Origin: Eubacteriales bacterium
Lineage (GTDB): Bacteria > Bacillota > Clostridia > Oscillospirales > CAG-272
Reading direction: 5' to 3'
Assembly (NCBI GenBank): GCA_045532975.1
Contig: JAZSGX010000067.1
Span: 1 to 62,687, forward strand
Length of the DNA stretch: 62,687 bases
Shown: in pieces, positions 527 through 35,367 of the stretch
How positions within the stretch are numbered: the stretch's first letter is position 1
Layout: the number at the start of each line of letters is the position of its first letter
Notes under the pieces: model-generated
Database searches by the model: none
Told to the model about the DNA's origin: nothing
The model's input: the letters and a program-made list of their open reading frames with translations, nothing else
Position numbers and translations under genes: made by a program

Positions 527-641
<115 letters not shown>

Positions 642-731: not shown

Positions 732-807
732 TCCGAATTAGCTCAGTTGGCAGAGCACCTGACTGTTAATCAGGTTGTCGCTGGTTCGAGCCCAGCATTC
801 GGAGCCA
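732..807 (+). tRNA. tRNA-Asn (anticodon GTT), CCA encoded
   Basis: Acceptor TCCGAAT/ATTCGGA, D arm GCTC-AGTTGGCA-GAGC, anticodon stem CCTGA/TCAGG with loop CTGTTAA, T arm GCTGG-TTCGAGC-CCAGC, discriminator G, CCA. Confidence 0.92.
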
Positions 808-809
808 TA

Positions 810-850
810 AAAGAAAAGCACGAACTTAGTTCGTGCTTTTCTTTTATTAT
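810..850 (+). terminator. Rho-independent terminator after tRNA-Asn
   Basis: AGAAAAGCACGAA-cttag-TTCGTGCTTTTCT followed by TTTATTAT. Confidence 0.8.
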
Positions 851-929
851 GGTTCCAAATGCTGAGCTCTCACATAGCTCCATCTAATCACAGTTTGTGC
901 TCTCAAAAGCGAGCTACTCAGTTGGCAGG

Positions 930-1040
930 CGGACCGAGAAAAACAATTAAGTATTGTTTTTCGACGGGAGTTAACTAAAACAAGGAGTTTTGAAGCCGAG
1001 TGTATCGAGGCGCGCAAAACGAGTATGTTTTAGGAAGTTG
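930..1040 (+). repeat. Structured module, copy 1 (reference orientation)
   Basis: Contains hairpin AAAAACAAT-TAAGT-ATTGTTTTT (939-961), GAGTGTATCGAGGCG (998-1012) and GTATGTTTT (1023-1031). Collinear with 11762-11874. Boundaries approximate. Confidence 0.7.
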
Positions 1041-1045
1041 GTTTA

Positions 1046-1211
1046 GTTAATCAGGTTGTCGCTGGTTCACGCTTCGCGTCCACTCCAGTCGCATAGTCGA
1101 TTAACTTCGCTTCGATACGCTCAGCTTGTTACTCTTCTTGCTTTGTGGAGAGAACTGCGGCGAAAACAATTCTTAATTATTTTCGCTCTTGTTCCCCAGC
1201 ATTCGGAGCCA
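1046..1211 (+). pseudogene. tRNA-Asn 3' half (anticodon loop to CCA), interrupted in the T loop by a 126-nt module. No 5' acceptor strand.
   Basis: 1046-1068 matches tRNA-Asn 765-787 at 23 of 23 positions. 1195-1219 is identical to 792-816 (25 of 25; the tRNA 3' fragment itself ends at the CCA, 1211). The T-loop GAG is replaced by 1069-1194. A degenerate D-arm-like AGCTACTCAGTTGGCAGG lies at 912-929. Confidence 0.7.
1069..1194 (-). repeat. Structured module, copy 2 (inverted), inside the T loop of the tRNA-Asn remnant
   Basis: The reverse complement carries the same ordered blocks: hairpin 1160-1186 with a TTAAG-type loop, CGCTTCGATACGCTC (1108-1122, the reverse complement of GAGCGTATCGAAGCG), and the TTGTGGAGAGAA and CTCCAGTC blocks shared with copy 3. 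Confidence 0.65.
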
Positions 1212-1212
1212 T

Positions 1213-1250
1213 AAAAGAACCACACGAACCAAGTTCGTGTGGTTTCTTTT
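1213..1250 (+). terminator. Terminator hairpin after the duplicated tRNA-Asn 3' end
   Basis: AGAACCACACGAA-ccaag-TTCGTGTGGTTTCT plus TTTATTA. Relative to 810-850 the stem differs by paired, compensatory substitutions. Confidence 0.7.
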
Positions 1251-1385
1251 ATTACTCCGATTGTTATGGCGAAAATCTGCTCACGTCAGTGATTGCTGCG
1301 ACGGACGAAGTCCTAGTCCCTGAAAGGGGGTTCGAGCCTTAGAGCGCCATAACAACTGGGCGTCTCACCAGCGACCGCTGGTTCC

Positions 1386-1507
1386 ACCTACGGTGCCGCT
1401 CCAGTCATATGGTCGTTCTGTGTCGCAATCGCAGATCACTCCGAGAACTCCCTATTTTGTGGAGAGAATTTCGTTTAAAACGATACTTAATCGTTTTAAA
1501 CTTCATT
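1386..1507 (-). repeat. Structured module, copy 3 (inverted), inside a second tRNA-like T arm
   Basis: Flanked by CGCTGGTTC (1377-1385) and CCCCAGCAGTGGGAGCCA (1508-1525). Perfect hairpin GTTTAAAACGAT-ACTTA-ATCGTTTTAAAC (1473-1501). TTGTGGAGAGAA at 1457-1468 and CTCCAGTC at 1399-1406. Confidence 0.65.
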
Positions 1508-1691
1508 CCCCAGCAGTGGGAGCCAAAACAAAAAGGACACCAAAACCTATATTAGAAATACTCAAGTGCAATTCAAAAACTGCCTTTGAATACGGAATGC
1601 GATATCGTATAAAAAATTCTTAATGCTCGTAATAATACTCTAAAGCTACATAATAGCGGGGCTTTGGGCTTTGATTTAAGTGTATATAAAG

Positions 1692-3971: not shown

Positions 3972-4748
3972 TTAAGCATGTTGATTTTTATATTTTTTAA
4001 TGTATTCTGTGGGGGACACGCCAATTTGTTCCTTGAATTGCCTGCTGAAAAAGTAAATGTCGGAAAAATTACACATCTCGGCAATTTGATTAACGGAATA
4101 TCTTCGCACCGATAACAGCTCGCAGGCATAATTCATTTTCTTTTGAATTATGTATTTTTTAACCGAAACCCCAAACTTTTTCTTGAATAACCGTTTTAGA
4201 CACGATTCGCTTATTTCGCAAACGGATGCTAGATATTCGTTTGTCAAGCTCTTATCCAAAAAGCCCTGCTCAATTTCCTCAATTGCAGGAAGAATTTTTA
4301 CGTATTGCTCCGTGGGCAAATAATTGTTTTTTTGAAGGCTTGAGAGAATTTTATAAAGCAGGGACATGCTTTCGAAGTAATACCCTTCGCCTTTATTGTT
4401 CCAAACGGAAAACAGCTTTTTGAAAAGAGATCCTATATATTCGTTGCTTTTGGAGTGTACAGTAAAGGCAACACTCGATATTGGCTTGTCGGATTCAAAG
4501 AAAACATCTATACATTCACCTAATTTTGAACGCTCAATTTCATATTTGGAAACAGTTCCGCGGGGTAAAAAGCGCACGGTGCTTGGTGACACCTTCAAGA
4601 CCGTGTCGCCAAAATATACAGTATATTCACCTGAAAAGTCAAAAATCAATTCATTAGCCGGAAGCAAGCTTGCGTAGCTCTCGACACTTTTTTGCTTTCT
4701 GAATAATACAACCTTTTCAATTTTAGTAATAAGAAAATTATTTTCCAT
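3972..4748 (-). CDS. AraC-family transcriptional regulator
   Basis: C-terminal AraC HTH (IAEMCNFSDIYFFSRQFKEQIGVSPTEY). Start moved to MENNFLIT, which has a GGGAGGA RBS. The ORF track begins at 4793. Confidence 0.8.
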   Translation of the reverse strand: MENNFLITKIEKVVLFRKQKSVESYASLLPANELIFDFSGEYTVYFGDTVLKVSPSTVRFLPRGTVSKYEIERSKLGECIDVFFESDKPISSVAFTVHSKSNEYIGSLFKKLFSVWNNKGEGYYFESMSLLYKILSSLQKNNYLPTEQYVKILPAIEEIEQGFLDKSLTNEYLASVCEISESCLKRLFKKKFGVSVKKYIIQKKMNYACELLSVRRYSVNQIAEMCNFSDIYFFSRQFKEQIGVSPTEYIKKYKNQHA

Positions 4749-4906
4749 ATAATCCTCCCTGAAAATTATAAGTCTCTTTTTTGGTAAATTCAATACAATT
4801 GAATTATATCATATAAATTGATGTAAAAAAAGTACAAATTGACCTGAAAATAAAAAGAGTAAAGCTGATTTTTTGGAAGTGTTAATTCGGTAAAAATAAA
4901 AAACAC

Positions 4907-4937
4907 TTGACTTTGACCCGAGGTTAGAGTTTATAAT
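4907..4937 (+). promoter_or_regulatory. MerR-type promoter with 19-bp spacer (copy 1)
   Basis: TTGACT, 19 nt (ttgacccgaggttagagtt), TATAAT. The spacer holds an imperfect palindrome ACTTTG-ACC-CGAGGT. Near-identical to 7916-7946. Confidence 0.7.
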
Positions 4938-4960
4938 ATTTATATAAGGGGGTGATTGTT

Positions 4961-6682
4961 TTGAAAATCAACGATGTTGAAAAAATAACGGGTCTGACAA
5001 GCAAAGCAATCCGTTTATATGAAAGCAAGGGACTAATTAACATTTCAAGAGAGGAAAACGGTTATCGTAATTATAGTGAGAGTGACGTTGAAGCCTTAAA
5101 GGAAATAAAGCTTTTTAGAAGAATTGGCATAGCTATATCCGATATTAAGCTGTATCTGTTTGGGGTAGTTAGCTTAGAGGAGCTAATAGAAAAAAGAAAG
5201 GCTGAAATTCTAAAGGAAAGCGGCAAAAATTCTGAAATATATGGCATTTGCGAAAGCATTTCTGCAAAAAGCTCATTGGAAGCTCTTGAAAATAATGAAA
5301 GCTTTACCGAAAACGAAAAAGCAAGAAACGGTGGTTATGGCACACCCTGTGTGGGCATAGACATCGGCACAACAACTATAAGCGCCCTTGTGTACGATAT
5401 TGATAATAAGGAGCAAATAGAAGCCTATACCCTGCCACACAACTCATACACCCAAAGGGGAGCATTTTCGGAGCAGGACGTGTCGATAATTATGGAAAAA
5501 GCAAAAAAGCTTTTGTACCATATTCTTTCAACCTATGAGAATATAGTAAGCATTGGCATAACAGGTCAAATGCACGGAATTGTGTATATAGATGAAAACG
5601 GACAGGCAGTATCTAACCTTATAAATTGGCAGGACAAGCGCGCAGACCAAGTAATAAGGGACGAAAAAACAACCTGTGATTTAATTTACGATGTAACAGG
5701 TGAGCGTATTTCAACAGGCTATGGTATTGCAACCCATTATTACAATATGCTAAATGGACTTGTGCCAAGGGGCGCTTGCGGCATTTGTACAATAATGGAT
5801 TTGTTTGCTATGGAAATATGCGGTAACAAAAAAGTTATAACTCACACATCTCTTGGCGGTAGCCTTGGTATGCTTGATGTAAAAAATAGTAGCTTTAAAT
5901 ATGATAAGCTAGCCATTCTTGGCATAGATAAGGAGCTTTTACCACAGGTAAGTGATAAGAGCCTAATTATAGGTAAATGCAAGGGTATACCGGTAGCTAT
6001 TCCAATAGGGGACAACCAAGCAAGCTTTTTAGGCTCGGTTAGTAAAAATGAGGACAGTATGCTTGTAAATATAGGCACAGGGTCCCAAATCTCCTATGCA
6101 ACCGATGAATATCAAGAGGTAGATAAGGAGCTGGAATTACGTCCACTCATTGAGGGTAAATACTTAGTTTGTGGCTCAGCCCTTTGTGGTGGCTTTGCCT
6201 ATTCAATGGTTGAGGAGTTTTTTAGAAGCTATACGGTAAGCGCAGGGGTACAGGAAAAATCTCAATATAGCGTAATAAATCAGTTAGCCAAGCAAGCCTA
6301 TGAAAATGGAGAAGAGGGTCTTTTAGTGGATGCCTTTTTCTGTGGAAAGCGTAGCGACCCTAACCTAAGAGGCTCTATTAAAAATATAGATAGACACAGC
6401 TTTACTCCGCAAGCCCTTGTTTTAGGAGTGCTTAAGGGAATGTGTAATGAGCTATATGAGCTTTATGAAAAGGTCCCTTGCAAAAAATCGCACATAGTTG
6501 CATCCGGTGGAGCTATTAAGAGAACAGAAATTCTAAAGGACATAATAGCTAAGCGCTTTGGAGCAACTGTTTCAGCTAATAGAGTTGACGAAGAATCATC
6601 AACAGGTGCTGCCCTTTTCTCAGCATTAGCAGTTGGAAAAATCAAGTATAATAATGGCTTTTCAGAGTATGTAGGAGGGTAA
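4961..6682 (+). CDS. MerR-family HTH fused to an FGGY/ASKHA carbohydrate-kinase-like domain
   Basis: N-terminus KINDVEKITGLTSKAIRLYESKGLI...YRNYSESDV plus a coiled coil. The remainder has GIDIGTTTISA and FGGY-like N and C lobes. A TTG start at 4961 follows AAGGGGG. The track's GTG at 4952 is an alternative. Confidence 0.75.
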   Translation: MKINDVEKITGLTSKAIRLYESKGLINISREENGYRNYSESDVEALKEIKLFRRIGIAISDIKLYLFGVVSLEELIEKRKAEILKESGKNSEIYGICESISAKSSLEALENNESFTENEKARNGGYGTPCVGIDIGTTTISALVYDIDNKEQIEAYTLPHNSYTQRGAFSEQDVSIIMEKAKKLLYHILSTYENIVSIGITGQMHGIVYIDENGQAVSNLINWQDKRADQVIRDEKTTCDLIYDVTGERISTGYGIATHYYNMLNGLVPRGACGICTIMDLFAMEICGNKKVITHTSLGGSLGMLDVKNSSFKYDKLAILGIDKELLPQVSDKSLIIGKCKGIPVAIPIGDNQASFLGSVSKNEDSMLVNIGTGSQISYATDEYQEVDKELELRPLIEGKYLVCGSALCGGFAYSMVEEFFRSYTVSAGVQEKSQYSVINQLAKQAYENGEEGLLVDAFFCGKRSDPNLRGSIKNIDRHSFTPQALVLGVLKGMCNELYELYEKVPCKKSHIVASGGAIKRTEILKDIIAKRFGATVSANRVDEESSTGAALFSALAVGKIKYNNGFSEYVGG

Positions 6683-6683
6683 T

Positions 6684-7886
6684 ATGAAGGACTTTACAAT
6701 AGCCTTTGAAATTGCAAAAAATCCAATTTATGCCGTATCCTTTAAGAACGGAAGAAAAACACTTGAAGTACAAGCCTTTAACGGTATCCTTACCATATCA
6801 TCACAATATGATTTTAATATGCGTCCTCTCGAATTAACCTGCGAAGTAAAAGAAGGGGATAAAATTAAGGCTGTATTCCTTGATTACAGAATAGAGCTAT
6901 ATGTAAATGGCACCATAATGGACGAGGAGTGGCCCTGTGGCACAAGGCTTTTTGAAATTGGTGATACAATTGTAGGTAGCATAGATATACAGGCTAATGA
7001 ATATGGAGCAAATGAAAAGGAAGAGCCAAGCGTAATTGGCACCTTTGAAAATGCACAAGGCTGGTATCCCGGAAACGGAGTGTTTGTAGGGGATTGTATG
7101 CCTTATGTAAGAAATGGCGAATACCACGTTTTGTATCTAAAGGATAGACACCATCATAAAAGCAAATGGGGAATGGGCGCACATCAATGGGAGCATATAT
7201 CAACTAAGGACTTTAAAAAATGGAGCATACACCCAATGGCGGTGCCTATTACCAAAAAGGAAGAATGCTCTATATGTACAGGCTCTTGGATACAAAAAGG
7301 GAATGAAGAGCATTTATATTACACCGTAAGACGGAGTGGCTTGCCTGCAATAATTACAAGAAGTATATCCTATGATGGCTATCATTTTAAAAAGGACGAG
7401 TTCTTTGGCTTTACCATATCGGAAAAATATAACGGACCCGTTGCAAGAGATCCCAAGGTAATAATGGGCGAGGACGGATTATATCATATGTTTTTGACAA
7501 CCGTGCTTGTCAAAGAAAATAAGGGCTGTCTTGTTCACTATGTATCAAAGGACTTAGAAAAGTGGGAAGAGGCAGAAAAAACCATACACGTGGTTGAAAA
7601 TAGCGACCATCCGGAGTGCCCCGACTACTTTAAGTACAATGGAAAATATTATCTTGTATTTAGTATTCGTGGCAGAGCCAAATACTTAGTGTCAGATAAG
7701 CCCTTTGATGGCTTTGTGTCCGTAACCGAGGAGCTAATCCCCTGTGCAGGTGTGCCAAAATGCGCCCAGTGGAACGGAAAGCTTATATTTACAGGCTTTG
7801 AGGCAATAAACGGATATGCAGGCTCAATGACCTTTAAATGCGCTACCGCCAAGGAAAACGGAGAGCTTATATTTGAGGACCTTTAA
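6684..7886 (+). CDS. GH32-family-like beta-propeller hydrolase (beta-fructosidase-like) with extra N-terminal domain
   Basis: RDPKV and ECPDYF motifs. GDCMPYVRNGEYHVLYL aligns with the WMNDPNG...G.YH.FY block. No signal peptide. Confidence 0.6.
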   Translation: MKDFTIAFEIAKNPIYAVSFKNGRKTLEVQAFNGILTISSQYDFNMRPLELTCEVKEGDKIKAVFLDYRIELYVNGTIMDEEWPCGTRLFEIGDTIVGSIDIQANEYGANEKEEPSVIGTFENAQGWYPGNGVFVGDCMPYVRNGEYHVLYLKDRHHHKSKWGMGAHQWEHISTKDFKKWSIHPMAVPITKKEECSICTGSWIQKGNEEHLYYTVRRSGLPAIITRSISYDGYHFKKDEFFGFTISEKYNGPVARDPKVIMGEDGLYHMFLTTVLVKENKGCLVHYVSKDLEKWEEAEKTIHVVENSDHPECPDYFKYNGKYYLVFSIRGRAKYLVSDKPFDGFVSVTEELIPCAGVPKCAQWNGKLIFTGFEAINGYAGSMTFKCATAKENGELIFEDL

Positions 7887-11039: not shown

Positions 11040-11527
11040 TGAAAAGAATCGTAGCGTTAATTTTGTGTGTGGCAACACTTTTTGCATTTTCAGTAATGTT
11101 TACGGGCTGTGGACAGGAGCAGGAAACGTATTTGCAGTATGGTAAGAAATACACATATCGGTATGATGAAAAAACTGAGGCAAAAGAAATCCATTATAGA
11201 GATACCTTTGTATTTAACGAGGACAAAACGGGTCAATATGACGAATATGAAAAAATAGAGGACTTTGAATATGACGGTAAATATAGCTATGTGCGTTCCT
11301 TCACTATAAAATTCAAGTGGAGATGGGCAGATATGGAAAAAAGCGCTATCTATATATTTGAAACTGAGCGTATTTATAACGACGAGCATGACGATTATAA
11401 GGATGCATCGATTTCCAATCTTCCATTTATAATCGGAGAGGAGTTTGTAGCGATATCGGGCGGAGCAAGATTTGTTCTTGAGGACTCCGATGTGTTTAAC
11501 GCGGAAAACGCGCTAAATGAGAATTAA
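11039..11527 (+). CDS. Lipoprotein, function unknown
   Basis: Signal peptide with lipobox FTGC. Start overlaps the upstream stop (ATAATG). Confidence 0.6.
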   Translation: MKRIVALILCVATLFAFSVMFTGCGQEQETYLQYGKKYTYRYDEKTEAKEIHYRDTFVFNEDKTGQYDEYEKIEDFEYDGKYSYVRSFTIKFKWRWADMEKSAIYIFETERIYNDEHDDYKDASISNLPFIIGEEFVAISGGARFVLEDSDVFNAENALNEN

Positions 11528-11638
11528 GCTCATTGATATAAATAAAGCGTATCAAGGTTTTGGTAAAACGGGTCGTCGGGGACGTCTAACCCTATGACAG
11601 GTATGTGGAACAGAACACGGTGGAGAAAACAGAAAAAT

Positions 11639-11664
11639 GGGACGCCGAGGGCGTTGTCCCCTAC
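11639..11664. repeat. GC-rich REP-like hairpin, copy 1
   Basis: GGGACGCCGAGGGCGTTGTCCCCTAC matches 29893-29918 at 25 of 26 positions. Core palindrome GACGCC-GAG-GGCGT(T/C). Confidence 0.7.
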
Positions 11665-11672
11665 ATAGGGTA

Positions 11673-11761
11673 CGTGGCACGGAACACGGCAAGTAAAATG
11701 TAAAGCACCCCACAATGCTTTAGGCACAGTGGGGTGATATTTGTAAACTAAGTCTGTAAGC
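11673..11761 (-). repeat. 89-bp direct duplicate of the rnpB 3' end, terminator and downstream flank
   Basis: 88 of 89 positions identical to 11875-11963 (offset 202 bp). Includes the last nucleotides of rnpB (GCTTACAGACTTAGTT on the minus strand) and the CACCCCAC/GTGGGGTG hairpin. Confidence 0.85.
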
Positions 11762-11874
11762 TGGCGACAAGGCAAAAACAATTGAGTATTGTTTTTGGTG
11801 CAGGAGCTTGCCAAAACAGTGGGAGTGACGAGACGAGTGTATCGAGGCGAAGGCAATCGCGTATGTTTTGAGCG
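11762..11874 (+). repeat. Structured module, copy 4, between the two rnpB 3'-end duplicates
   Basis: AAAAACAAT-TGAGT-ATTGTTTTT (11774-11796), GAGTGTATCGAGGCG (11835-11849), GTATGTTTT (11861-11869). Collinear with 930-1040. Confidence 0.75.
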
Positions 11875-11944
11875 CGTGGCACAGAACACGGCAAGTAAAA
11901 TGTAAAGCACCCCACAATGCTTTAGGCACAGTGGGGTGATATTT

Positions 11945-12349
11945 GTAAACTAAGTCTGTAAGCCGTGTTCTGTCGTTTAAGACGGTCATCTATCTTTGCT
12001 TTATGTTGCCATAAAGCTCCGCAAATTGCGTGCCACCCGGGGAAACGCCAAATGGCTTGTCGGGCTAACAAGATTTTCCCCATGCGGTGTTGCTTCGGAT
12101 AGGGTTTACACCCACCCTATGTTACCATAGCGTGTCGTGAGCTCTTACCTCACGTTTTCAACCTTACATAACGGACGGTCGGGGACGCCCGTCCCTACAA
12201 CCGTGGAATATTATGCGGTAATTTTCTGTTGCACTTTCCCTAAGGTCACCCTCGGCTGACGTTATCAGTTATCCTGCCCTGTGAAGCACGGACTTTCCTC
12301 ACCGTAATACCTTTCGGCAACATACGGCGCGACCGTCCAACTTAGTTCG
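11945..12349 (-). ncRNA. rnpB: RNase P RNA (bacterial, type-A-like)
   Basis: Minus strand carries GAGGAAAGTCCG (12290-12300 on plus), AGGGCAGG, AAGTGCAACAGAAA, GGTAAGAGCTCAC, GTAAACCC and ACAGAACACGGCTTACAG. P1 pairs AACTAAGT with ACTTAGTT. Ends are good to about 5 nt. Confidence 0.9.
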
Positions 12350-35233: not shown

Positions 35234-35262
35234 TTGACAAATCGAGTAAAATATGGTATAAT
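35234..35262 (+). promoter_or_regulatory. Sigma-A promoter (extended -10)
   Basis: TTGACA, 17 nt, TGgTATAAT. Confidence 0.65.
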
Positions 35263-35268
35263 GTTCAC

Positions 35269-35367
35269 GCTACACAAACTGCATATTTTACTCTGATACG
35301 GGAAAATACTTTGGTAAAAAGTGTTTTCTCTCTTTTCTCATACCGTATCGGAGAGAGTTTGTGTAGC
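35269..35367 (+). promoter_or_regulatory. 99-nt three-tier hairpin leader of unknown class
   Basis: GCTACACAAACT/AGTTTGTGTAGC closing stem, CTCTGATACGG/CCGTATCGGAGAG middle stem, GAAAATACTT/AAGTGTTTTC apical stem. Confidence 0.5.

Follow-up and report, generated by a model that had tools for sequence, protein, structure and literature searches.

The DNA analysed here, referred to throughout as the window, is a stretch of 62,687 nt (positions 1 to 62,687 of contig JAZSGX010000067.1) from a Eubacteriales bacterium. At the gathering score of Rfam 15, the whole window matched only rnpB, two 5S and three tRNA genes. An intact tRNA-Asn(GTT) gene and the intact RNase P RNA gene are each adjoined by partial copies of themselves, and four copies of a short module lie among these and other tRNA-like fragments (Table 1). 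Copy 1 was found in the D arm of the same pseudo-tRNA-Asn as copy 2, which adds to an earlier note made from the letters of this DNA.

Table 1. Positions in the window of the four module copies, the stable-RNA genes beside them and the gene fragments that host them (CM, covariance model).
Feature	Position	Strand	Basis
Intact tRNA-Asn(GTT), fragments of which host copies 1 and 2	732..807	+	ARAGORN; Rfam 69.3 bits
Imperfect inverted copy of the tRNA-Asn 3′ end (TGGTTCCAAATGCTGAG), directly past the tRNA-Asn terminator	848..864	+	sequence reading
Pseudo-tRNA-Asn D-arm fragment (GAGCTACTCAGTTGGCAG), immediately 5′ of copy 1	911..928	+	sequence reading
Module copy 1, D-arm type	924..1041	+	CM R1 100.2 bits
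Pseudo-tRNA-Asn, anticodon loop to T-stem 5′ strand and TTC	1046..1068	+	100% identical to 765-787
Module copy 2, T-loop type, opposite in orientation to the tRNA fragment	about 1069..1194	-	CM 96.7 bits
Pseudo-tRNA-Asn T-stem 3′ strand, acceptor 3′ strand and CCA (1195-1211), then its own terminator (1217-1245)	1195..1245	+	
T-stem-like 5′ strand and TTCC (CGCTGGTTCC), flank of copy 3	1376..1385	+	repeat comparison
Module copy 3, T-loop type, inverted	about 1386..1507	-	CM 70.2 bits
tRNA-like 3′ end (CCCCAGCAGTGGGAGCCA) behind copy 3	1507..1524	+	sequence reading
89-nt direct repeat, left copy; antisense to the final ~21 nt of rnpB and the terminator region	11673..11761	+	99% identical
Module copy 4, flanked on either side by a copy of the rnpB 3′ end and antisense to rnpB	about 11762..11874	+	CM 87.2 bits
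89-nt direct repeat, right copy, running on into intact rnpB	11875..11963	+	99% identical
Intact RNase P RNA gene (bacterial class A)	11943..12348	-	Rfam RF00010, 247 bits, model positions 1-367

The four related modules described in the earlier note were all recovered, at the positions and on the strands given there, by the covariance model and by an independent HMM. The recovered copies span 924-1041(+), 11759-11879(+), 1078-1199(-) and 1394-1513(-). This HMM, built from 26 copies of other genomes only, retrieved the four with E values of 2.6e-23, 6e-21, 4.5e-20 and 1.6e-12 (the last for copy 3), a recovery far beyond chance, and it gave no other match with E < 0.5 in the window. No fifth module was found in the window, since the sole extra match of the covariance model (35238-35341, 23.6 bits) is unlike a member. 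Pairwise identities among the four, taken from a multiple alignment, are 45-64%, somewhat lower than the 60-65% first guessed; gap-cheap global alignment was uninformative for this purpose, because shuffled sequences reached equally high scores. The hairpins and shared blocks quoted in the note are present in the window sequence. No ORF of at least 80 aa overlaps 930-1507, in agreement with the lack of coding potential reported for the modules; two mechanical ORFs, 11530-11910(-) and 11720-11989(-), overlap the copy at the rnpB site. The closest relatives of copy 1 are D-type tRNA-Asn copies at the related loci L017 (93%) and L022 (90%), those of copy 2 are at L099 (80%) and L003 (78%), and that of copy 3 is at L064 (79%).

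Both inverted copies had been placed in the T loop of tRNA-like 3′ halves, and the flanks bear this out, with matches to tRNA-Asn of 100% upstream of copy 2 and 89% downstream of it (1195-1239 against 791-835 of the intact gene); the terminator that follows was found by scan. Positions 1456-1533, at the far end of copy 3, are 73% identical to 1142-1219, and the flank at 1376-1385 is orthologous in L003 and L145. The arrangement of D-arm fragment and module recurs in L017, L022, L073 and L139, and the inverted copy of the tRNA-Asn 3′ end is also present in L017 and L073. At the rnpB junction, the module occupies the identical position in L162 and L161, a remnant persists in L160, and the module is absent in L153 and L154. 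The copy thus shared by three species at one junction shows compensatory changes in P2. At its left end (11876-11891, GTGGCACAGAACACGG), the right-hand repeat carries an inverted copy of the stretch of rnpB immediately inside the breakpoint. Promoter and terminator scans around the window copies gave convincing signals only for tRNA, pseudo-tRNA and rnpB.

The module folds on one strand into a P1 hairpin (10-12 bp, loop TRAGT) and a long irregular hairpin, P2-P3, with a conserved internal loop (AAGGAG/CGACUAU), to which the T-loop subfamily adds a small GNA-loop hairpin, P4. In copy 1, P1 spans 938-962 (loop TAAGT at 948-952), P2 pairs about 969-976 with 1026-1033, and P3 lies in between with the apical loop GAGTGTATCGA; the minimum free energy fold agrees with the structure derived from covariation (z = -3.9). 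Copy 2 carries P4 at 1069-1079 (ACGC-GAA-GCGT on the element strand), and copy 3, the most diverged of the four, has the P3 tip GATCTGCGATTGC instead of GAGTGTATCGA. The suggestion that the stems vary between copies and still pair proved correct, and compensatory variation was found across 56 copies from Clostridia MAGs: 83.5% of the cells are paired vs 64.3% in shuffles, double-change cells number 346 vs 121, and slid controls reach 38-48%. In well-paired columns, G-U pairs outnumber A-C pairs when read on the element strand (22 vs 13, and 9 vs 1 in T-type copies), and all four window copies have the greater fold stability on that strand (copy 2: -38.5 kcal/mol vs -28.9 kcal/mol on the opposite strand). 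Wobble pairs and folding energies thus favour the element's own strand. By the same two measures, T-loop copies fold on the strand that is antisense to their tRNA-like scaffold, and a module embedded in tRNA-like RNA is therefore an unlikely functional form. The relative orientation noted as common to the two T-loop copies and the rnpB copy is indeed shared, all three being antisense to the 3′ end of the host gene. The idea of a structured ncRNA or mobile RNA-like module holds as regards a structured, non-coding, multi-copy element outside Rfam.

The family envisaged from the four window copies is much wider: over 60 copies of full length occur in about 40 other MAGs, and a second phylum has over 100 copies of the hairpin core. 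A search with a two-block pattern gave 26 loci, and P1 alone gave at least 119 further loci. The 115-125-nt module is a real unit, but it proved to be an extension of a smaller one: P1 with its flanks forms an independent hairpin element of 42-46 nt, which stands alone in gut Melainabacteria, where it is abundant and has the frame A-CTCTGCCGA...GAGAGG, and in some Clostridia. The core also occurs in the frames GGACTCCG..TGGATGG and GACCGAG..CGACGGGAG, and P1 is nearly invariant between the two phyla. In Melainabacteria, two frame subfamilies each occur in D-type, T-type and non-tRNA contexts with locus-specific flanks; in Gastranaerophilales, the hairpin is near-invariant at orthologous tRNA loci of several species and the leaders diverge. 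MAGs of Ca. Avispirillum carry near-identical copies at unrelated loci, and some copies are nested within other, unrelated palindromic repeats. In the lineage of the window, copies group by site type across genomes and not by genome. Copy number per genome varies widely. Relatives also differ in which copies they carry: in L017 a further unit precedes tRNA-Asn and the counterpart of the window's 1069 copy is missing, and the 1386-type copy is the only one in L003. Copies are truncated or interrupted without replacement in L007, L008, L145 and L160. A metagenome scan for strain variants of the tRNA-Asn locus, with the 5S 3′ end, yielded two short contigs, neither of which is a clean empty site. 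A literature search by topic and by literal sequence strings returned no description of the element.

A tRNA gene lies within 400 nt of 82 of the 168 hairpins sampled; 43 of these hairpins are upstream on the same strand, 22 are convergent, 17 are downstream on the same strand and none is divergent. The copies occupy partial or decayed duplicates of stable-RNA genes that adjoin the intact gene. Copies in the D arm or variable loop have the gene's own orientation, and those in the T loop, in the anticodon loop or at the rnpB 3′ end are inverted relative to it; the polarity is therefore uniform, the element always reading from the outer end towards the interior of the gene. It takes the place of the 5′ half of the stem-loop, and the inserted unit measures 42-200 nt. 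Most junctions in Melainabacteria are 11-12 nt away from a mature end of the tRNA, 5′ or 3′, and T-loop copies replace 3-6 nt with no duplication. Sites at stable-RNA 3′ ends, on which the modules had been thought to ride, do exist, but D-arm (5′-end) and variable-loop sites are equally common. An alignment of 33 copies with 40-nt flanks contained no terminal inverted repeats (5′ end GG..GNGRRG, 3′ end GGAAG or GGAG), and there is no short target duplication of fixed length, which upholds the stated unlikeness to MITEs. The accompanying claim that target-site duplications are lacking fails for the rnpB copy, since the 89-nt direct repeats (99%) bound it exactly. Flanking repeats, where found, are copies of stable-RNA gene ends of about 11 to 89 nt. 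Orientation showed no bias relative to the local majority gene strand (33/72 copies) and none relative to GC skew (positive for 95/168, p = 0.10), both measures being proxies for the replication strand.

No gene was linked to the element. ORFs clustered within 1.5-2.5 kb of all copies gave only syntenic housekeeping genes, and the 148 nearest ORFs compared with Pfam, like the neighbours in the window, were housekeeping genes; RAYT and Y1 transposases were absent from the neighbour clusters and from the 25 most frequent Pfam families of these 148 ORFs. No integrase, transposase or reverse transcriptase was linked to the element, and about 170 copies had no integrase or other recombinase nearby. 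In IMG/VR, the two-block pattern had no match and P1 alone had one true and three chance matches, and blastn against PLSDB (plasmids) and INPHARED (phages) gave no match.

The family is non-coding, structured and uncatalogued. ROOL, GOLLD or any other Rfam 15 family, raised as possible identities, gave no match to the modules at gathering score and no credible one with E<=10 in 1-1800 and 11500-12000; nor did any family match the element at 28 related loci (gathering score) or in one Melainabacteria array (E<=10). All Rfam searches together returned only tRNA, 5S, rnpB, 23S and one TPP riboswitch. The outcomes that the earlier note named as refuting its idea were not obtained. ROOL and GOLLD are likewise structured, non-coding and near tRNA genes of Firmicutes, but they measure 500-800 nt compared with 115-125 nt, and the element is multi-copy with a folded strand often antisense to the tRNA fragment. 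TnpB/IscB guide-RNA scaffolds resemble it in their strand-specific hairpins and lack of terminal inverted repeats, and the element abuts its flank and is in principle guide-capable; however, no TnpB or IscB gene is nearby, the 42-46 nt core is far too small for the known scaffolds, and the absence of an Rfam match separates it from the HEARO and IS605-orfB motifs. The D-type copies resemble eukaryotic tRNA-derived SINEs in having a tRNA-derived head followed by a structured body, the element is non-autonomous, and many copies would, by analogy, be transcribed from a tRNA promoter. The likeness is an analogy only: here the host is a bacterium, the head stems from local copying of the adjacent tRNA and lies outside the element, inverted sites at 3′ ends occur, and there is neither a tail nor a known reverse transcriptase partner.

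Several other identities were rejected. The outer R″ (RYYYAAC) and R′ (GTTRRRY) boxes of an integron attC site close an imperfect hairpin; here AAAAC and GTTTT are apical in P1, not basal, and the box consensus is unmet. A functional tRNA or tmRNA with an insertion does not fit, as ARAGORN and Rfam call only the intact neighbours and the host copies lack a 5′ or 3′ half. On the sequence alone, group I, group II and BHB introns are discounted by the small size, the wrong strand and the pseudogene hosts, a CRISPR-like array by periods of 100-122 nt with identical "spacers", and a retroviral-type primer-binding site by flanks that run into genomic terminators and lack TGG. Covarying stems speak against a palindromic protein operator, and the lack of a conserved downstream gene against a riboswitch or leader.

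Our preferred reading, put forward tentatively, is that the family is a structured, non-autonomous mobile element that has been present in the lineage of the window for a long time. The covarying fold, the strand specificity, the concentration at stable-RNA genes and the lack of linked genes are counted in its favour. The near-identical copies at unrelated loci, the mixed contexts, the nesting and the presence or absence among relatives may be taken as signs of mobility. The element would be copied in trans through a folded single-stranded intermediate and would enter stem-loops through the action of a structure-specific enzyme or through template switching in DNA synthesis. Only insertions into redundant gene copies would survive, and the four window copies would be old residents inherited at the same sites. 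Against this stand the lack of a tied transposase, recombinase or reverse transcriptase, and the fact that no clean pair of filled and empty sites with exact boundaries was recovered. The clustering by site type and the rnpB junction kept in three species resemble selected orthologous loci, and selfish spread alone is no obvious explanation for the near-invariance of P1 over two phyla. Known ssDNA transposons have an orientation bias and insert into the lagging-strand template, unlike the element with its lack of gene-strand or GC-skew bias. The reading also gives no account of the origin of the partial gene duplications. A broader version, which we consider rather doubtful, would be a cross-phylum class of mobile hairpins that pass through a folded single strand (RNA to DNA, or strand switching) and insert at stem-loops of stable-RNA gene ends, the same event making direct and inverted partial duplications that spare the host gene. 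This would be a bacterial counterpart of tRNA-linked SINE-like elements, with strict inward polarity and a ruler of roughly 11 nt from the mature RNA end.

The main rival, unlikely but a serious possibility, is a structured element with a host function: a small RNA from tRNA precursors or tRNA-like scaffolds, or a strand-specific DNA structure beside highly expressed stable-RNA genes, the tRNA and rnpB fragments providing expression, processing or anchoring. The strong covariation, the conserved internal and apical loops and the near-invariant hairpin at orthologous Gastranaerophilales tRNA loci despite leader divergence all argue for it. So do the site-specific lineages kept across species and the identical rnpB junction with its compensatory P2 changes, a pattern that fits host function. 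D-type copies sit between the tRNA promoter region and the tRNA, so that co-transcription and release by RNase P would follow, and terminator-like hairpins lie behind the L030 units and several Avispirillum copies. However, T-loop, anticodon-loop and rnpB copies fold on the strand antisense to their host gene, and in this orientation they follow a bidirectional terminator so closely that a promoter would not fit in between. Stand-alone copies have no conserved sigma-70-like promoter upstream, the gene neighbourhood is not conserved, truncated or interrupted copies are left unreplaced, and copy number differs widely among genomes. A locus-specific duplication or chance resemblance with no wider family, which the merely moderate identity among the window copies could have suggested, is given practically no weight in view of the full-length copies in other MAGs, the core copies in a second phylum and the independent HMM with E values down to 2.6e-23.

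Miniature derivatives of single-strand DNA transposons (IS200/IS605 PATEs, REP/REPIN), which a Y1 (HUH) transposase or RAYT from another place in the genome would mobilise in trans, seem an improbable source. Like PATEs, the element has strand-specific hairpins, no terminal inverted repeats and no fixed short duplication on insertion, it is multi-copy and non-autonomous, and it enters the loops of other palindromes. Like REP/REPIN and cyanobacterial small dispersed repeats, it is a short, non-coding, multi-copy hairpin without a gene of its own, intergenic and nested in other repeats; the enzyme presumed to serve REP/REPIN in trans also uses a single strand in folded form. In IS200/IS605, the hairpins of the two ends are alike, whereas P1 and P2-P3 are dissimilar both in sequence and in form. 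The element shows no bias for a replication strand, TnpA, Y1 and TnpB genes are absent from the neighbour clusters and from the most frequent families among the 148 nearest ORFs, and a tetra- or pentanucleotide target is not conserved (no conserved tetranucleotide at the left junctions of T-type sites). REP/REPIN differ further in their GTAG or CGTC head (see PMC3733652), which the element lacks, and in their doublet organisation and linked RAYT, and the element has a strong polar tie to stable-RNA gene ends, a core common to two phyla and, in its Clostridial form, a second structured domain of 65 nt. Scars of integrase-driven elements, with the tRNA and rnpB fragments as attL/attR duplications and the module as a conserved element end beside attP, have similarly poor prospects. 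As in tRNA-targeting integrative elements, CIMEs and tycheposon-type repeats, partial tRNA or rnpB copies adjoin the intact gene, and downstream partial tRNA 3′ copies begin in the anticodon or T loop, reportedly the classical crossover sublocations of tyrosine integrases. Att-type direct repeats of the gene's 3′ part flank the insert (89 nt for rnpB, as after site-specific integration; the tRNA 3′ end with or without terminator in T-type copies). This idea of the earlier note is nevertheless disfavoured. No integrase was found near about 170 copies, the unit is of only 42-200 nt, and contiguous tRNA sequence brackets the module on both sides, splitting the loop, which makes it a loop insertion and not an element end. 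Many copies lie in D loops of upstream 5′ copies, as frequent as 3′-end sites, or inside unrelated repeats, the 42-nt core is identical across phyla with covarying stems, and the plasmids and phages searched held none, with one only in IMG/VR.

If the mobile reading is correct, gut Clostridia and Melainabacteria would have in common a new family of very small structured repeats with an unusual insertion logic, that is, into loops of surplus copies of tRNA and RNase P RNA genes, with gene-ward polarity and no linked enzyme. It would account for the tRNA-like fragments and tandem pseudo-tRNA arrays that disturb tRNA annotation in these MAGs. It makes testable which enzyme or replication process recognises the 42-nt hairpin and tRNA stem-loops, and whether insertion itself generates the partial gene duplications. 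If a host function is the true explanation, stable-RNA genes would have a new and abundant structured element, RNA or DNA, tied to them, outside Rfam and deserving a family entry. A k-turn consists of a C stem, a 3-nt bulge, tandem sheared G-A pairs and an NC stem. The frame CUC-UGCC-GA..GA-GAG of Melainabacteria allows a k-turn-like drawing in which the bulge has 4 nt; its CTGTGCC variant is uncompensated, and the variant at L065 has one G-A pair fewer.

The modules are a real and widespread family that is absent from Rfam 15. A two-block pattern matched 26 loci in MAGs of Clostridia, Oscillospiraceae and Ca. Avispirillum, with several loci per genome, and nhmmer identified 29 module copies within them. 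The hairpin P1 alone was found at at least 119 further loci, mostly in Ca. Gastranaerophilales/Melainabacteria and also in more Clostridia. No Rfam 15 family matched the modules or the related hairpin elements in the window and related loci, and literature searches by topic and literal sequence revealed no description of the module family. We place it among small structured interspersed repeats of the REP, MITE and small-dispersed-repeat kind, with unusual targeting and polarity.

In the 62.7-kb window, nhmmer and a covariance model found exactly four modules (70–100 bits), and a profile constructed solely from 26 copies in other genomes recovered all four (E 2.6e-23 to 1.6e-12). The earlier note estimated roughly 60–65% identity between these copies by eye; they do align along their entire length, but the measured identities were 45–64%. 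The next covariance-model match (35238–35341, minus strand; 23.6 bits, E about 4e-4) is an unrelated hairpin, GAAAACAC..GTATTTTC, in AT-rich intergenic sequence without the conserved blocks of the family.

Modules and stable RNA genes in the window
Feature	Position	Remarks
23S rRNA gene 3' end	window start	
tRNA-Lys(CTT)	165–240	
Two tandem 5S genes	about 334–450, 526–642	97% identical
tRNA-Asn	732–807	
Copy 1	924–1041	plus strand
Copy 2	1069–1194	minus strand
Copy 3	1386–1507	minus strand
Copy 4 (rnpB copy)	11762–11874	plus strand
RNase P RNA gene (rnpB)	11943–12348	minus strand
tRNA-Thr		beyond the rRNA-operon tail

Three helices were derived from the alignments. P1 has 10–12 bp and the loop TRAGT; P2 is the closing helix of a long irregular hairpin; and P3 consists of 7 + 3 bp on either side of a GA/GAC internal loop and frequently has GAGUGUAUCGA as its tip. 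A conserved internal loop, AAGGAG/CGACUAU, separates P2 from P3, and the T-loop subfamily has an extra small C-GNA-G hairpin. Single-sequence folds reproduced this structure in all four window copies. Pairing was found in 82.8% of cells with 30 copies (66.9% in shuffles) and in 83.5% with 56 copies aligned to the model (64.3% in shuffles, 38–48% in slid controls); in the latter alignment, 346 cells had double changes, versus 121 in shuffles, and 25 of 31 pairs had changes on both sides. P2 occurs in at least five versions, all pairing (CUAAAAC/GUUUUAG, CGAAAAU/AUUUUCG, CCGCC/GGUGG, CUCCA/UGGAG and GUCAUC/GAUGAC).

The Melainabacteria repeat unit comprises only 42–46 nt, in which A-CTCTGCCGA and GAGAGG enclose AAAACRATTRAGTATYGTTTT and, on either side of it, the two matching strands of a variable paired extension; the A-CTCTGCCGA...GAGAGG frame is present in 66 of 149 unique copies, and a second frame is GGACTCCG..TGGATGG. 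The extension covaries (AC/GT, GC/GC, GA/TC, GAA/TTC, ACA/TGT). Clostridial modules contain a homologous core, GACCGAG-P1-CGACGGGAG, followed by P2–P3, and some Clostridia (loci L027 and L041) have the core without P2–P3. The Clostridial module is an extended version of the 42–46-nt unit. In Melainabacteria and related MAGs (L046, L049, L050, L071, L080, L091, L095), the hairpin element is nested in another abundant palindromic repeat (GTCATTGCGAGCG... / GTCATCCTGAGC... ...CTCGCAATGAC), directly past its 5' arm. Hairpin copies at L034 (~1600–1720), L086 (~200–330) and L058 (~6590–6760) break the helix of a common sequence, ..GCGGATTTTCG before the element and ..CGAAATCCCGAATAATCCAAGAC.. after it, for which Rfam has no family.

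A tRNA gene lies no more than 400 nt from 82 of the 168 P1 hairpins, and many tRNA identities are represented: 43 of these hairpins are upstream and 17 downstream on the strand of the gene, 22 are convergent and none is divergent. Along the element strand there is a single topology, consisting of an outer gene-end fragment, the element, local gene sequence or spacer, and the intact gene. D-type copies have tRNA 1–11/12 as the outer fragment and the element in place of 12–17; then come tRNA 18 to ~35, a short leader and finally the real tRNA, and 2–3 tandem units of 100–122 nt are often present (L029, L030, L037, L079, L103). T-type copies (L056, L063, L069, L072, L090, L092, L133) have the antisense of the final ~11 nt of the tRNA as the outer fragment, with the element in place of one half of the T stem-loop. 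Anticodon-loop and anticodon-stem sites were also found (L077, L108, tRNA-Ile loci), and sites in Clostridia are the 3' side of the D stem, the variable-loop position and the T loop, with T-loop copies inverted. In all site classes, the element takes the place of the 5' half of a stem-loop on the element strand, and in every case the host copy is a duplicate, partial or decayed, alongside an intact gene. At L040 (2480–2570), a hairpin-free partial tRNA-Ile 5' copy (1–28) is fused to a second partial copy with the hairpin, so partial tRNA duplications also occur without the element. Sites of this kind can also hold other inserts: at L014 (~4030–4200), a third 5' copy of tRNA-Pro has a different insert of ~150 nt in its D loop, and at L146 (~560–625, minus strand), the tRNA-Asn D-type site has a shorter two-hairpin insert, in which only the 3' spacer with its CACCGTAGGTG hairpin is shared. 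Downstream of tRNA-Met at L077 (~4500–5800), a 1.3-kb insertion with one ORF of no assigned function separates repeat units 2 and 3.

As the earlier note described, each of the inverted copies 2 and 3 sits within a tRNA-like 3' half, in its T loop; tRNA-Asn matches flank copy 2, with 1046–1068 identical to 765–787 and 1195–1239 89% identical to 791–835, terminator included. Beyond that description, a D-arm fragment of the same pseudo-tRNA-Asn (911–928) precedes copy 1, and copy 4 is exactly bounded by an 89-nt direct repeat composed of rnpB 3'-end and terminator-region sequence. Among 15 loci retrieved by an rnpB 3'-end scan, a module was present at the identical junction (..GTCTGTAAGC^TGGCGACAAGG.. 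and ..CG^TGGYACAGAACACGG; carets, breakpoints) in L162 (E 2.5e-24) and L161 (E 2.7e-11), the latter differing in both P2 class and P3 tip; L160 retains only a 3' remnant of the module, and the site lacks the module in L153, L154 and all Tissierellia/Soehngenia loci. The rnpB segment immediately inside the breakpoint recurs in inverted form on the right of the module, and the tRNA 3' end does so beyond the tRNA-Asn terminator; direct and inverted partial duplications are thus both present. The terminators of tRNA-Asn, pseudo-tRNA-Asn and rnpB (796–864, 1200–1263, 11881–11975) each have an inverted copy of their own gene's 3' segment alongside, giving long-range hairpins in which the acceptor 3' strand or the rnpB ACAGAACACGG segment takes part. 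Upstream of copy 4, at 11560–11700, two further decayed units of ~69 nt, each with a GC-rich segment like rnpB 12170–12197 (AACGGNCGNCGGGGACG..CCCTA) and then GTGGNACNGAACACGG, look like older partial rnpB duplications.

The genes near the modules are ordinary (EamA transporter, GH10 xylanase, AraC regulator, FGGY kinase, ABC transporters), and close relatives of the locus come from uncultured gut Eubacteriales/Clostridia MAGs (L017, L003, L022). The rRNA-operon tail (1–807) is unusual, and its gene order recurs in L017, L022 and L070. Between copies 2 and 3, a ~110-nt unit (1263–1375) closed by GTTATGGCG...CGCCATAAC contains a T-loop-like GGGGTTCGAGCC, with a related piece in L017; at L145 (395–500), the closing helix is GCTATGGCG...CGCCATAGC, compensatory with respect to the window. 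This unit is possibly another small structured insert family.

G-U outnumbered A-C on the element strand in well-paired columns (22 vs 13, 8 of the 13 stemming from one misaligned column), in columns next to P1 (36 vs 16, 149 unique copies) and in T-loop-type copies outside the window (9 vs 1), and this strand was more stable by 4–10 kcal/mol in all four window copies. Read along it, copy 2 comes immediately after a bidirectional terminator. Because both the T-loop copies and the rnpB copy fold on a strand that is antisense to their host gene, a module carried within a tRNA-like transcript is unlikely to be the selected form.

Our leading, still tentative, interpretation is a non-autonomous structured mobile element acting via a folded single strand and long resident in the lineage of the window. 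Avispirillum has near-identical copies whose loci are unrelated; individual core subfamilies recur at D-type, T-type and non-tRNA sites, with flanks specific to each locus; copies are nested within other palindromic repeats; presence or absence varies among relatives; and one core is common to two phyla. Insertion may proceed by template switching at stem-loops, which would account jointly for the replaced half-stem and the direct and inverted duplications. A host-functional RNA or DNA element is a possibility that we rank second: each window copy is nearest to copies of the same site type in other genomes (79–93% for copies 1–3; copy 1, 93% and 90%; copy 2, 80% and 78%; copy 3, 79%), the rnpB junction is kept with compensatory change, and the core is nearly invariant.

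A Y1/RAYT-type system and integrase scars both appear improbable. Arguing against known mobile systems, the neighbouring genes of the copies examined include no linked integrase, transposase or reverse transcriptase, the modules have neither terminal inverted repeats nor a fixed target duplication, proxies gave no sign of replication-strand bias, and carriage is essentially nil in the phage and plasmid collections searched.

In Ca. Avispirillum (L018, 7500–7760; L011, 1–260; L008), stand-alone modules are preceded by a conserved ~170-nt region. It contains two hairpins: one of 16–20 bp, with stem covariation from copy to copy, and a second that is terminator-like. Around these modules, CCCCGATAAACCCGAATTT is a recurrent motif in both orientations, which suggests that they belong with a distinct repeat family or to a larger composite element. 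At L007 (351–469) and L008 (1786–1905), an unrelated ~90-nt insert splits the module past GAGTGTATCGARGCG, and the module restarts at GATCGACTATG.
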